From IMG/VR virus record IMGVR_UViG_2531839662_000020: a stretch of DNA of 12,646 nt; one strand, 5' to 3'. The first letter of the stretch is position 1; each line of letters begins with the position of its first letter. Position numbers and translations under genes: made by a program. Below, in pieces: positions 1 through 8,560 of this stretch. The notes below the pieces were generated by a model. The model searched no databases and was not told where the DNA came from. It saw only the letters and a program-made list of their open reading frames with translations. The stretch comes from a virus (lineage: Duplodnaviria > Heunggongvirae > Uroviricota > Caudoviricetes).

Positions 1-474
1 AGTTTGCTCCTGCCATAACGTGAAGAAGCAATGACCTGGTGGTCCGTGACTTCCCTACGCTGGCATTATCCAGATCAGGTGATACGGGTATTTCTTACTG
101 ATTTTTGTTATCAGTTGATAATTAATAAGTTTTTCAGCAAACAAGAATTAAAAACTTCAAAACTGACCACACAACTGACCACACATTTTGTTGAAGCTCT
201 ACGAACAAAGACGAACAATAACAAACAAAAGGGAAATTTGCTGGCAGTTTTGCTTAACCGTTATCATTTTTCGGCTATCCGTTATCAAGCTGGTGGATGA
301 TCACGGATAACCCGTTATGGGAATCCCCATATCGGCATCATGCCCACCAGCATGAAGTATTTTTCGCGGATGTAAAAATTTGACGGGGCGGGCGGTCCCA
401 TAAGCAATGGGGGGGTAGGGATTCCGCTCCCCCCCCCTCCCGAATGCAATTTTTCTTATATATATACAAAACAG

Positions 475-629: not shown

Positions 630-915
630 ACCCCATCAGGAAAATGGGGCCAGTGATGCCACCGAACGGCTGAATCTGGTAACGTTCTGTTGCCTGGTTG
701 CAGTTTGCGGGTCAGCAATACTGACGCACAAAGTTAGCCGTATGTGGCTGTGCGTCCACCAGCTACGCCGGAATGGGGTATTCCGTTTCAACGGAACAGG
801 TATGACGAATATGATCGCACCTTCTCCCGAAAACGGGTTTGCCTGTTTCGGGAAAACGGGCACATGAAGCTGCATAGACATTTTCACTATTCAGGATCTG
901 GCGGGGGAGTTTCTC

Positions 916-1050
916 AATTTCCACCGTTGGTGGAAATTAAACGAATACAGCGAGTTAGGACAAGGTGACTAATGGTCACTCTGTTGCTGCGTCACCATAT
1001 TGATGATCCAGCCCTGTAGTCGCGCCACTTTTCCACCAATGGTGGAAAAG
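916..1050. repeat. Pair of near-identical 23-bp palindromes (10-bp arms, 3-bp spacer)
   Basis: AATTTCCACC-GTT-GGTGGAAATT at 916-938 and CTTTTCCACC-AAT-GGTGGAAAAG at 1028-1050. Related dyads nearby: GTGAC-TAATG-GTCAC at 965-979 and CCCCC-AAT-GGGGG at 1073-1085. Confidence 0.6.
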
Positions 1051-1191
1051 CCCACAGCAGGCCGCCCAGCCTCCCCCAATGGGGGATTGTGGAAGAATCA
1101 ACGGGTTAGGCCTTAATCATCTGCGTAATCATAAGTAATCATAATGTTCATTCATCCAGCGCAATTTTGCGTTATCGGGAATATCAGCAAG

Positions 1192-1481: not shown

Positions 1482-3143
1482 TTATACCCCATCAAACGCC
1501 GCAAGCCGCTCTTTGTGGCTGTCGCTCATATCGAATGCAAATTCCTCATGTTCTGCCTGGAATGTGCCAAACGCCATCAGCGCCGCAACGCTCGGGTCTA
1601 TCTTGTTGGATGATTTTTTCTTGTTCGGCTTGATATTGGCGTTCGCGTCACTCTGCATCACAACATTACTCATTGACCAGGCCAGCACCGGATCGCCACG
1701 ATGCACAATCACCTTCCGGTTAACAAAAACTTCGAACGATTTCGCCGCCGGACTGAAACGAAGGTATGTTTGCGGGAACGGCTCCACCTCAAATCCTGCC
1801 CCCTGTAGCTGCGTCCTCAGGTGCGTGGCGTTCCATGTATCGAAGCCCACCAGCCTGATATTGAAATTCTCTGCATCCGCCATGATGTCATCACGGATAC
1901 GGTCATAATCAATGCAGTCACCCGGTGTTGTGCGTATCCAGCCCGCCTTTACCCACTGGCGATAGATGGCGCGGTTTTTATTGGCGGGGTTCTGTAGCTG
2001 AAACTCCGGCAGATAGTGACGGGAAACCAGCATAATCTTTTTACCGACCGGAAAGGCATAGCACACGCTGGAAATATCGCTGGTTGATGATAAGTCCAGC
2101 CCCGCGTAGCACTCCTGCCCGTATAAATCCGCCTCCGCGAACGTTCCGGCGCACTCCGCCCATGCACCGTTACCCATCCACGGCGTGGCCCCCTGACACC
2201 AGATATTGAATCGCTTAGTGAGCATTTCCACCCACTGCGACGGAATACCCCGCGCTTTCTGGATGGTTGAGGCCAGTTTTTCACGATCGACGGAAACATC
2301 GATATTGGGATTCGCCTTTATCCACATCGCCGGATCGTCAACCTCGCTTTCATCATCCAGCTCGTAAATCAGCACGAACATGGATTCGTTCACCTCTTCA
2401 CCATCCAGTATCTGGCAGCAATAGTCGTAGTGTTGTTTACAGGCTGAAACAACGTTGCTCCCCGATGTGGTGATGGCAAATAATAACCCCTCCGGACGCG
2501 CCCCCATTCCCAGTTCAAGCGCGGAATAAACCCCGTTGTCAGGGTGCAGGTGATATTCATCCACAATGGCAAGACTCGGGTTTGTACCTTCAATGGTTGC
2601 CGCTTTTGCTGCCAGTGGCTTTAACAGGCTGTTGGTTTTCGGGTGTATCACCTTGTGTGCCTGAATATTTACCCGCTTTCGCAACGGTCGGGATAAAAGG
2701 CACATCTGACGCGCATCATCAAACACGATCCGCGCCTGATCACGACTCACGGCGGCGGTGTAAATATCCTGCTGCCCGTTTTCCATAACCAGAAACCAGT
2801 TAGCCAGGATAGCGGCGACCGTGGATTTGGCATTTTTTCGCGGCACTTCAATGAATGCGCTGGTGTATTTGCGCCGTCCGGTGGCCTTAACCTTAAAGCC
2901 CAGGATGCACGCAAAGGCGAACTGCTGCCACGGCTCCAGCTCAATGGGGCTACCGCGCATTGCGCCTTTTACGTGCGGACACACCCTGGAAAAGGCAATA
3001 AACCGCTCCACGACCTCCGGATCGAACGTGTAAAGGGGGTTTTCAAGGTCAGAAAAATACCGTTTAACGGCCTGTTTCAGTCGTTTACAGGCCGTAATTT
3101 TGCCGTTTTTTACGCCTTCTGCGTACTCATGCCAGGCGGTCAA
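1482..3143 (-). CDS. terL: Terminase large subunit (Terminase_1-like)
   Basis: 553-aa ORF with LEPWQ...F motif and P-loop-like VPRKNAKST near the N-terminus, then a nuclease-type C-terminal half. Apparent TTG start preceded by GAGGA. Overlaps the small terminase by 17 nt. Confidence 0.88.
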   Translation of the reverse strand: MTAWHEYAEGVKNGKITACKRLKQAVKRYFSDLENPLYTFDPEVVERFIAFSRVCPHVKGAMRGSPIELEPWQQFAFACILGFKVKATGRRKYTSAFIEVPRKNAKSTVAAILANWFLVMENGQQDIYTAAVSRDQARIVFDDARQMCLLSRPLRKRVNIQAHKVIHPKTNSLLKPLAAKAATIEGTNPSLAIVDEYHLHPDNGVYSALELGMGARPEGLLFAITTSGSNVVSACKQHYDYCCQILDGEEVNESMFVLIYELDDESEVDDPAMWIKANPNIDVSVDREKLASTIQKARGIPSQWVEMLTKRFNIWCQGATPWMGNGAWAECAGTFAEADLYGQECYAGLDLSSTSDISSVCYAFPVGKKIMLVSRHYLPEFQLQNPANKNRAIYRQWVKAGWIRTTPGDCIDYDRIRDDIMADAENFNIRLVGFDTWNATHLRTQLQGAGFEVEPFPQTYLRFSPAAKSFEVFVNRKVIVHRGDPVLAWSMSNVVMQSDANANIKPNKKKSSNKIDPSVAALMAFGTFQAEHEEFAFDMSDSHKERLAAFDGV

Positions 3144-3483
3144 GCTCGTCCTCTTCCTCTGTTTCCGGTGGATTTCTGCGGCGACTTACCGGGTCAAAAC
3201 CCAGCAAAGAAGCCATTTTGATCATTATTCTTTCCGCGTCAGCCTTTGCGCTCAGGGCGGGGTTTCTGCTCTCGCTGCCCTGACTGTTAACAATGCTGAA
3301 CCCGCGCGTGGCAAGGTCTTCGACGGCTTTGCGGTATATGGAGTAGTTAACGCAATATAGCTCCAGATTGCTCCAGTCGGCGGGGGTAAGGTCTTCCCGT
3401 CCGGAAAGCTGGCGCGATTTTTCCTTCCACTGCCTGACCGCGATTTCATCCAGGTAAGCGGGGGCTTTTGGTGGTCTTGCCAT
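3127..3483 (-). CDS. terS: Terminase small subunit, P27 family-like
   Basis: N-terminus MARPPKAPAYLDEIAVRQW is typical of P27-type small terminases and the length is about 118 aa. The longer track ORF (to 3624) is rejected as an N-terminal extension. Sits immediately upstream of terL. Confidence 0.75.
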   Translation of the reverse strand: MARPPKAPAYLDEIAVRQWKEKSRQLSGREDLTPADWSNLELYCVNYSIYRKAVEDLATRGFSIVNSQGSESRNPALSAKADAERIMIKMASLLGFDPVSRRRNPPETEEEDELDRLA

Positions 3484-3771
3484 GTTCTCTTTTCGCCCAA
3501 TTATTTTCAAAAAAAATCCCGTGCACAAAAATTTGAGGAGGCGGTCGGTGTCCGGCAGGGACGGTTTTGTCCTGAAAACCTCCCCCACCCCCTCTGACGG
3601 CCTCACCAGCGATTGCGAAAACATTCCATGACCTCGCGGTCACGGTCGGTTAATTGCTTCGCTGTGGTGCGTTCTGTGCGCCCTGTCCTGTTGGCTTTGT
3701 GCCCTGTCTCCTGTGTCTTCCATAAGTCACGCTGCCTTATCAGTCCACGTATCAGCCTGTTTTGCTCCTGT
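3484..3771. other. Candidate cos / terminase recognition region (HNH-TerS intergenic)
   Basis: 288-bp non-coding gap between the HNH gene and terS, the position cos occupies in HK97-like phages. Contains two 15-bp direct repeats (3676-3690 and 3698-3714), a C-rich tract at 3578-3600 and an A-tract at 3509-3530. Cut site not determinable from sequence. Confidence 0.3.
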
Positions 3772-4212
3772 TCAGTCATCATCGCCATACATCCAGTCGT
3801 TACGGTGTGCCGCCCGTTCTTCCTGCTCGCGATACATGCCCGCCTTACGGTTCGCTTTCGTGGCTGGATCTTCCCGTGTCGTCTTACGGTTGTGGCACGT
3901 CTGGCACAATGCCTGGTGATTCCACTCAGGCCAGAAGAGAACATCACCGCCGCCATTGATGGGAATGATGTGATCCACCACAAGAGCTGGCGTATAAATC
4001 CCCTTAGCCAGACAACGCACGCATAACGGGTTTTTGCTCAGGTACAGGGCGCGGTATTTGTCCCACTGTCGGGAATACCCGCGCGCGCGGCGGTGTCCCC
4101 GTCTGGCATCCTCTGCACGCCATGCAGCCCGCCTGTGCTCTTCACACTTTCCGGACTTCACGCGCTTATTACAGCCCGGCTCAGTGCAGCGCCTTAATGG
4201 TTGCCACGGCAT
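3772..4212 (-). CDS. HNH endonuclease (packaging-associated)
   Basis: 146 aa with CxxC...VDHIIP...N.Q.LC..CHNRKT HNH/zinc-finger motif. Start overlaps the connector stop (TGATG). Located just upstream of terS as in HK97-like packaging modules. Confidence 0.85.
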   Translation of the reverse strand: MPWQPLRRCTEPGCNKRVKSGKCEEHRRAAWRAEDARRGHRRARGYSRQWDKYRALYLSKNPLCVRCLAKGIYTPALVVDHIIPINGGGDVLFWPEWNHQALCQTCHNRKTTREDPATKANRKAGMYREQEERAAHRNDWMYGDDD

Positions 4213-7778: not shown

Positions 7779-8027
7779 TTATTGTTTCACTGGATCCCGC
7801 ATTCTGCGTCTTATTTTCCACAGATATTCGATCATCGCTTCCACCTGCTCACGATTGGTTGCGAAAATTTCCCCGGTCAGTGAGCTGCGCAGAAAATCAT
7901 GATGATCCACAACAAACAACGCATCGGAAGAAAGCAGACGGCGATATTTTTTTGCTGTCGTGGTTTCCAGATCATCAAAACCATGAAACTTTTTATGTTG
8001 CTGGACTTCTTCAAATGTCACTGGCAT
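7779..8027 (-). CDS. Hypothetical protein, 82 aa, translationally coupled to the ProQ/FinO gene
   Basis: ATG start at 8027 overlaps the upstream gene's 3' end by 10 nt. No family recognised. Followed by the terminator. Confidence 0.5.
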   Translation of the reverse strand: MPVTFEEVQQHKKFHGFDDLETTTAKKYRRLLSSDALFVVDHHDFLRSSLTGEIFATNREQVEAMIEYLWKIRRRMRDPVKQ

Positions 8028-8560
8028 GTATCCCCCTTTGCTGCCCGGCGCTGGCGCTTGTGCTTCTCATTCAGCGCCATCAGCCGCGTTTCTGCCTCCT
8101 GCTGTTCCTGTGGTGTCACTTCCCCACATGGCTGGCCTTTCAGGTCGTATCGTACCCCACCAGCAACCAGGGCGCGGTAATAGCGCGGAGACTGCGCATA
8201 AGATGCCAGCGTCGCACGTAATGCCCCCGGCCCGAATGCCAGCCCCCTGACGGCGAGATCCTGCATCAGGTCGTCGAATATCCCCACCTTAAGCGGCTTC
8301 GGTGCTTCCCTGTTGAATAAGTCAGGCCACATCTCAGTGAGGCGGTTAACGCGCCTGCGGTTTTTGCGCTGGCGTTTGGTCATATGCCGCCACGGTGTCA
8401 CCCCTGTGGGCTGCCCTTTGCGGCTCTGCTGTGCGTTCTGATTGCCGGGTATCACTTTATGCGCCGATGTGGTTTTATCCCGCTCTTGCGCCGCCTGCGT
8501 CGTTTTCTGCGGCGTGCCGTAAATGCCTTTCGGTTTTCGGTTAATGGTCAGCTTTGTCAT
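8018..8560 (-). CDS. ProQ/FinO-domain RNA-binding protein with basic N-terminal extension
   Basis: C-terminal two-thirds (WPDLFNREAPKPLKVGIFDDL...LRATLASYAQSPRYYRALVAGGVRYDLKGQPCGEVTPQEQQEA) matches the ProQ/FinO N-terminal domain pattern recalled from E. coli ProQ. N-terminal about 70 aa is Lys/Arg/Gln-rich. AGGGGAAGG RBS. Confidence 0.75.
   Translation of the reverse strand: MTKLTINRKPKGIYGTPQKTTQAAQERDKTTSAHKVIPGNQNAQQSRKGQPTGVTPWRHMTKRQRKNRRRVNRLTEMWPDLFNREAPKPLKVGIFDDLMQDLAVRGLAFGPGALRATLASYAQSPRYYRALVAGGVRYDLKGQPCGEVTPQEQQEAETRLMALNEKHKRQRRAAKGDTCQ

Follow-up and report, generated by a model that had tools for sequence, protein, structure and literature searches.

What are the short palindromes that lie in the non-coding end of this island, just beyond its packaging genes, and what might read them? 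The stretch analysed here (12,646 nt; the window) is 99.9-100% identical to the chromosome of E. coli UMNF18 from position 2530495 onward. It covers the left 12.6 kb of an integrative island of the capsid-forming PICI type, which in this strain sits in the thiM leader, and its gene content agrees with that of the capsid-forming PICIs described earlier (bioRxiv 10.1101/2022.09.08.507074). All island genes are carried on the - strand. They include capsid and packaging genes (major capsid protein, prohead protease, portal, head-tail connector, HNH, P27-family small terminase and the large terminase, terL, at 1482-3143) and, as the last gene after terL, a 94-aa ORF (1192-1476, - strand; phrog_1561, no known function). 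Upstream of these are a DUF927 primase-helicase, an SSB, a ProQ/FinO-domain protein and an Icd-like gene, while AlpA and a tyrosine integrase are encoded just outside the window. No convincing gene was found in the first 1.19 kb of the window, a segment dense in repeats; it is here, downstream of the packaging operon as the sequence-only reading of this DNA had stated, that the palindromes are located.

Further features of the setting were recorded alongside. The ProQ/FinO-domain protein, an RNA-binding protein, is encoded at 8018-8560 (- strand; Pfam E = 9e-25), with the SSB gene adjacent. In RefSeq, the small terminase and HNH genes of UMNF18 (3126-3481 and 3769-4210) appear as frameshifted pseudogenes; the ORF list nevertheless gives a 165-aa terS ORF at 3127-3624, so that either a defective island or an assembly error is indicated. 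The thiM TPP riboswitch is interrupted by the island, the promoter and the aptamer's 5' half being left at the integrase end and its 3' half with thiM, and the island end provides a replacement hairpin (ACTGATttttgttATCAGT, 97-115) and GUAAGA where CUGAGA stood (window 1-126, - strand; L254 1500-1570). The interrupted aptamer gives a sub-threshold match only (31.7 bits vs a gathering score of 54.3).

Four dyads were found in the segment downstream of the 94-aa ORF, each at most 1 nt from where they had been placed before (all coordinates on the + strand). Box 1 (916-938, AATTTCCACCgttGGTGGAAATT) has 10-bp arms around an asymmetric centre (AATTTCCACC-gtt-GGTGGAAATT) and is followed by a degenerate tail (acgaatacagcgagttagg, 939-962). 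Box 2 (1028-1050, CTTTTCCACCAaTGGTGGAAAAG), whose start lies 112 bp from that of box 1, the distance given previously, is a perfect 23-bp palindrome with 11-bp arms (CTTTTCCACCA-a-TGGTGGAAAAG). The two shorter dyads have 7-bp arms: one, at 965-979 (GTGACTAaTGGTCAC, GTGACTA-a-TGGTCAC), contains a single T.G mismatch, and the other, box 3 (TCCCCCAaTGGGGGA, TCCCCCA-a-TGGGGGA), exists as claimed, although it spans 1072-1086 and not 1073-1085. Box 3 carries a tail (GATTGTGGAAGAATCAACGGGTTAGGCC, 1084-1111) that is homologous to the roi codons for DCGRINGLG and, 10 nt past the dyad, a match to the IHF consensus (AATCAACGGGTTA at 1096-1108; consensus WATCAANNNNTTR). A second IHF-like match (TATCAGCAAGTTA, 1182-1194) overlaps the stop codon of the 94-aa ORF; in the whole window we counted four matches to this consensus, with 0.74 expected, and none after the dyad at 1028-1050, as in the EKPTAGRP subtype of the phage genes described below. 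Boxes 2 and 3 and the IHF site form a double box (1030-1112) that is kept as a unit across islands. The isolated CAATGG reported at 405-410 was likewise found.

The palindromes did not arise by chance. Two perfect dyads with arms of at least 10 nt occur in the window, as compared with 0.057 expected per 12.6 kb (300 dinucleotide shuffles), and the four distinct dyads with arms of at least 7 nt in the 12.6-kb window are all within 781-1086. None of the array dyads is followed by a T-run and a terminator scan of 900-1190 was empty, in agreement with the earlier view that they are not intrinsic terminators; no promoter-like or terminator-like site was called on either strand of this segment. Nothing in the whole window reached the gathering threshold of an Rfam 15 family, and at E<=1 the only hits in 1-1300 were the sub-threshold TPP match and a 'drum' match, both outside the array, so that a known structured RNA family was rejected. 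A REP/BIME (RIB/RIP) element was rejected as well, the REP consensus being absent from the window even when three mismatches were allowed.

A BLAST search of 880-1200 against phage genomes returned only short stretches, all of them inside genes annotated as antirepressor, Roi or DNA-binding protein, in phages of Escherichia, Salmonella, Cronobacter, Erwinia, Pseudomonas and Hamiltonella. The segment 1027-1058 is 100% identical over its 32 nt to nt 67-98 of the ant gene of Salmonella phage SSU5, box 1 is a near copy of the same ant box (89% over 19 nt, local blastn), and 1084-1111 is 96% identical over 28 nt to nt 141-168 of a roi gene. Roi is composed of Phage_pRha and KilAC/ANT, and the box-matching segment lies within the pRha domain. 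The dyads at 1028-1050 and 1072-1086 recur unchanged within coding sequence, in pRha genes from IMG/VR and SSU5, that of box 3 occurring in genes that encode ..FPPMGEK.. (L100, L105, L110), and the flanks of the boxes are homologous to the codons for ..GVI-box-EKPTAGRP.. and ..box-DCGRINGLG... The dyad at 965-979 was absent from the 160 pRha gene loci sampled and is island-specific in that sample.

Box 2 with its tail to 1070 translates in frame to TFPPMVEKPTAGRPA, a peptide shared with SSU5 Ant, and the box 3 tail translates, in a different frame, to PPPMGDCGRINGLGLN (DCGRINGLGLN); both frames are broken by stops, which puts the boxes outside any intact pRha ORF. The arrays of five island loci match a ~45-nt part of pRha genes only, and do so several times per island. 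As gene parts outside this ~45-nt segment never match, the island boxes are not decayed whole genes, and a decayed pRha gene was rejected as their source. These matches provide a solid basis for regarding the palindromes as non-coding copies of a discrete 'Rha/Roi box' from genes of the Phage_pRha-domain family (Roi, Rha and many Ant).

The box has distinctive properties in the phage genes themselves, for which we sampled 160 pRha gene loci from IMG/VR plus SSU5, JLK-2012 and HK022 (111 distinct gene segments). Variation in the protein alignment is concentrated in about 20 residues between 'GVI' and 'FEGEQGK', the remainder being highly conserved, and this stretch, the only hypervariable one of the pRha N-terminal domain, is encoded by an odd-centred palindrome. 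In 76 of the 111 distinct segments a dyad with arms of at least 6 nt occurred in the same 41-nt stretch, against 0.03 expected per 41 nt elsewhere. At least seven arm types were seen (CCTCAA, CCACCA, CCCCCA, CCTCCA, CCTGCA, CCACAG and more), the symmetry being kept while the peptide changes: examples are ATCCTCAAaTTGAGGAT (HPQIED), CCTGCAtTGCAGG (LPALQV), CCTCCAaTGGAGG (PPME), the two dyads identical to those of box 3 (FPPMGEK) and box 2 (TFPPMVEK), and TCAATTTCCACAGaCTGTGGAAATTGA and TTCAATTTCCTCAAaTTGAGGAAATTGAA, the last a perfect 29-bp palindrome in coding DNA with arms of 14 bp. Judged from these alignments, the box is demonstrably under selection at the nucleotide level in the phage genes.

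The symmetry reaches a single central base in 37/47 distinct boxes (outer-anchored search); counted by core type, symmetry to the centre holds for six and fails for two. The base at -1 is always A, a synonymous third position (CCA, CAA), and pairs with the T of ATG/ATT, whereas the loop of an RNA hairpin does not need such pairing. Since a dimer bound to duplex DNA needs a complementary centre, a protein-binding dyad is favoured. The C-AAT-G centre common to the island dyads, which had been described as their shared core, is explained by the Pro/Gln and Met/Ile codons of the gene-borne box. CC at -6/-5 and GG at +5/+6 are invariant and about 11 bp apart, which places the half-sites one helical turn from each other. 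The sequence AATCAAT(GGG/AAC)TTAGG, which matches the IHF consensus, comes after the dyad in the ..INxLG subtypes, and at the homologous codons of HK022 roi CTGCAtTGCAG is followed by the IHF consensus AATCAATGATTTA. In 1996, Clerget and Boccard reportedly described a site in the HK022 roi gene that is bound by Roi itself and lies close to an IHF site, the binding being stabilised by IHF. Comparing SSU5 Ant with JLK Roi, the region of the recognition helix is nearly the same while the dyad cores differ, so that no clean covariation between protein and site is seen. Near the gene start, some 120 nt upstream of this palindrome, a second conserved dyad (ATGGCAaTGCCAT) is present in 38/111 distinct pRha segments (L009-L174; alignment A2).

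Arrays of two to five boxes of mixed type were detected in islands at thiM, phoQ, clpS and mdtJ; some of these islands have an HK97-like packaging module, others a lambda-like one with a ClpP/MCP fusion or one that includes a head decoration protein. In every case the array directly follows the 3' end of a homologue of the 94-aa gene, and the polarity of the boxes is constant and opposite to that gene. In the EDL933-type island the boxes are CGACCTCCTCAAaTTGAGGAGGTCG, CCTCAAaTTGAGG, TGCGAAAaTTTCGCA and TTCCACAGtCTGTGGAA; several array dyads, TGCGAAAaTTTCGCA among them together with 965-979 and others, were not found in the pRha gene sample. The double box, taken as 106 nt, occurs whole or in part in 686/5426 complete E. 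coli genomes, either intergenic or in Rha/antirepressor genes. As an 85-nt unit it is near-invariant in five distinct flank contexts, with left flanks about 73% identical and carrying a 9-nt indel, and right flanks that differ. The motif ATATCArCnAGTTACCGCGCC recurs between the boxes of related islands. These alignments show cassette-like conservation of the island boxes.

Conservation across related islands, proposed at the outset as a check, was thus seen in several island types, although it has exceptions. One-sided changes that break the dyad were found in box 1 of the close relative F11, whose left arm carries two changes, and in L201, L252, L217, L092, L093 and L089; each single box is therefore under no strict selection. 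The array is dispensable, being absent from a Salmonella island that carries the same 94-aa gene. Sampling across genera was thin, a scan of genome contigs with the 94-aa protein yielding a single locus, and a separate search for contigs that encode it yielding one Salmonella context. Where an island and a roi gene came from the same genome, the dyad type was not always shared, an anecdotal comparison in which the pairs were made by contig names. Some relatives at thiM and mdtJ (L092, 1753-2055; L093, 2809-3111) have additional ORFs and a gene for a PerC-family regulator between the array and the 94-aa gene.

The options of a cos/pac array and of an attachment region, both raised by the sequence-only reading, were not borne out, as each of these features is found elsewhere. 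The cohesive end (GGGGCGGGCG, 385-394, 10 nt) is identical to the annotated cos of the Stx phage phiP27, and 362-399 is 97% identical to the annotated phiP27 cos region (BLAST) and also matches the genome ends of SfV, SfII, SfIV and ST64B. A lambda-like cosN had at first been suspected at about 383-400; BLAST identified it as the phiP27 cos, separate from the dyads, which are about 520-700 bp away, and nothing cos-like was present in 900-1190. The att core (ATACGGGTATTTCT) is at 81-94, with a second copy beyond the integrase at the other island end, and a direct repeat of ~80 bp (AACTGACCACA twice and ACGAACAA three times) occurs near both island ends (150-235; L254 1368-1440); these repeats are probably the arm-type sites of the integrase. 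Cos, att and the array are distinct features of the island end, cos and att being 500-800 bp from the dyads. For the partition option there was nothing in support; the 'regulatory site set' that was also listed comes nearest.

The position of cos in related elements bears on the same point. The classical PICIs with such an array (L004, L090, L091) have two lambda-type cos sites, both across the 94-aa gene from the array, and in the Salmonella island, which lacks the array, the 94-aa gene is directly adjoined by a P27-type cos; for these reasons the array is not a packaging signal. The paired sites of the classical PICIs agree with what has been reported for EcCICFT073, which has a cos1 and a cos2 (PMC6739421). 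They are inverted (GTTACGGGGCGGCGACCTCGCGG) and bracket a short stretch immediately upstream of the 94-aa gene (L004, 2602 and 3350; L090, 1971 and 2847; L091, 2375 and 2908).

Other elements of the non-coding end were also observed. The phiP27-identical cos of this island lies about 2.7 kb downstream of terS/terL, and that of the phage between HNH and terS; the EDL933-type island is without a phiP27-type cos sequence. An inverted repeat of a G-run and a C-run (GGGGGGGtagggattccgctCCCCCCC, within 405-445) comes right after cos, this repeat being preceded by a weak dyad (CCCATaagcaATGGG); a G/C-rich segment comparable to it is present in the cos region of phiP27. An AT-rich stretch (505-575) that includes an IHF consensus (TATCAATGCGTTA, 533-545) is flanked by repeats (475-504 and 575-630), three of GCGGGTTA and four, inverted, of TAACCCGCAA; this arrangement at 475-630, which is origin-like or cosB-like, is also seen in the classical PICI of strain F11. 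Between att and cos, the CCGTTATC motif is present three times (248-312), twice direct and once inverted, and the segment 286-350 is conserved in a Salmonella island at a tRNA gene.

Our preferred reading, to which we give an even chance, is that the array would constitute a set of operators for dimeric pRha-family proteins from helper or resident phages, assisted by IHF, and would act as a decoy or as a landing pad. The general proposal made earlier, of repeated sites for a dimeric protein, is thereby the best supported one, if indirectly, through the dyad symmetry, the invariant CC/GG and the identity with the Rha/Roi/Ant box; most of the specific options attached to it fell away. From box identity, selection in the genes and cassette conservation, each demonstrated by comparison, we infer which protein would bind and what its binding might do. 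The pRha protein would have to come from a helper or resident prophage, because a Pfam scan of part of the island ORFs detected no pRha domain and the island annotation lists none.

The predicted course is as follows. The island stacks three or four boxes of different arm types between the last gene of the packaging operon and the cos/att end. Dimers of the pRha family, made in trans by helper or co-resident prophages, would bind this array as duplex DNA, and IHF would bend the DNA beside at least one of the boxes (box 3). After induction, the amplified array may titrate the regulators off their own genes, a decoy that would interfere with the helper; alternatively, it may recruit them to the island end, which would then serve as a landing pad or a roadblock. 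A wider version of this reading is tentative and, in our judgement, rather doubtful: E. coli phage satellites, capsid-forming and classical PICIs alike, would carry arrays of several specificities, made up of operators copied out of the rha/roi/ant genes of their helpers. Following induction, the amplified array with IHF would capture these regulators and would derail the autoregulation of Roi/Rha in the helper, as a DNA sponge acting in cis, or would signal to the island that a helper is present.

Four other explanations were weighed against binding by helper regulators. The boxes may be relics, i.e. short patches of pRha genes captured by illegitimate or homologous recombination between islands and phages, in which the palindromes would serve as hot spots of recombination or template switching, and may have no role. 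Such an origin would fit the mosaic character of the region, in which different relatives share different sub-segments, as well as the broken reading frames, the single-sided changes that break dyads and the Salmonella relative without an array. Capture without function would hardly account, however, for the finding that the box alone is ever present and never the adjoining gene parts, for its repeated stacking in one orientation, for island dyads that equal or exceed the gene-borne ones in length (23-25 bp perfect), or for a double box that stays near-invariant while its flanks are only about 73% identical; we consider relics unlikely. An accessory packaging signal (cosB- or cosQ-like) or a set of attachment or recombination arm sites is the least probable reading, despite the 1.1-kb non-coding end that the array shares with cos and att and an IHF consensus of the kind typical of cosB and attP arms. 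Besides the separate positions of cos, of the att core and of the end-shared repeats, and the cos sites of the classical PICIs and of Salmonella described above, the recurrence of the array at four chromosomal sites (thiM, phoQ, clpS, mdtJ) stands against it.

Hairpins in RNA or single-stranded DNA at the 3' end of the packaging transcript, forming an exonuclease barrier, a processing site or a non-canonical terminator and possibly read by the ProQ/FinO protein that the island encodes, would suit the location of the array directly 3' of the last operon gene, with no intrinsic terminator before it and the first terminator-like hairpin of the - strand at 652-628. The - strand RNA of 890-1200 folds better than its shuffles (z = -3.05), but any palindrome folds well, so that a good folding energy is an automatic result. 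We hold this explanation to be improbable, given that the symmetry continues through the would-be loop, including the synonymous third position, that there is neither a U-tract nor an Rfam family, and that in phage genes the element has the opposite transcriptional orientation, where a 14-bp stem would hinder translation. Somewhat less probable again is that the boxes belong to a replication origin or are sites for a protein of the island itself, such as the 94-aa protein encoded next to them. The array always adjoins the 94-aa gene; yet the protein is conserved (70-100% identity) while the dyad arms vary between and within islands, and its AF2 model consists of three helices of low confidence (pLDDT 64) with no DNA-binding signature. 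With no Pfam family and no PDB relative found for it, the 94-aa protein was rejected as the binder. In origins of the lambda type, gene O contains an array of similar dyads, accompanied by IHF and AT-rich DNA; there is a resemblance between lambda ori iteron 3 (ATCCCTCAAATTGGGGGATTG) and a roi box (ATCCTCAAATTGAGGATTGTG), and an ori-like region of iterons and AT-rich DNA (475-630) lies 270 bp from the array. Against an origin, the pRha domain is without detectable homology to lambda O, and the spacing of the boxes is irregular (40-112 bp), unlike that of origin iterons.

Operators for pRha-family proteins, the reading we favour, have their closest parallel in the Roi site of HK022, which belongs to the same dyad family and has an IHF consensus downstream; other roi genes hold the very dyads of the islands. 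The island boxes differ from it in being non-coding, multiplied (three to four here and up to five in relatives) and of mixed arms, in an element with no annotated pRha gene. Lambda ori, with four dyad-symmetric O iterons inside gene O, is alike in that sites are embedded in phage coding sequence, as in pRha genes, and in forming an array of several dyads, as in the island; its iteron 3 (ATCCCTCAAATTGGGGGA) looks similar. However, pRha genes carry one box and not four, and the island boxes are irregularly spaced, without an AT-rich unwinding region directly after them, and no O-like gene is annotated. The likeness of iteron 3 (ATCCCTCAAATTGGGGGAttg) to a roi box (cATCCTCAAATTGAGGATtgtg) is close (L253 435-519, gene O), and where lambda iteron 1 encodes IPQNEGK, pRha genes encode FPQIEEK. 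Homology between the N-terminal domains of pRha and lambda O was rejected as the cause of this likeness (hhalign probability 1.4%).

RIB/RIP elements are said, in work by Boccard and Prentki from 1993, to consist of BIME-type palindromic units flanking an IHF site at the 3' ends of E. coli operons. They resemble the island array in combining palindromes and an IHF site just past the last gene of an operon; the island sequences are unrelated to them, and REP units, in contrast to the boxes, are not derived from coding sequence. The cosB region of lambda-like phages and of EcCICFT073 consists of R sites and an IHF site (PMC6739421), a combination of repeated protein-binding sites and IHF in the non-coding end of a PICI that the island array, whose binding is predicted, would share, whereas the array is away from cosN and unrelated to the P27-type cos of this island.

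Our literature search found no report of Rha/Roi boxes in satellites, nor of a palindrome that is general to pRha genes; the precedent known is the one Roi site of HK022. To our knowledge, the interactions of satellites with their helpers described so far proceed via satellite proteins or via shared cos/pac sites. EcCIEDL933 and HK106 are an established satellite/helper system. Operators for helper regulators, carried in satellite DNA, would amount to a different, cis-acting route, by titration or by recruitment. For the phages, the finding revives the almost forgotten binding of Roi within its own gene and would generalise it across many enterobacterial Rha/Roi/Ant genes, a very common phage family; if this holds true, the whole pRha family would be autoregulated via an operator that lies within the hypervariable part of its own coding sequence.
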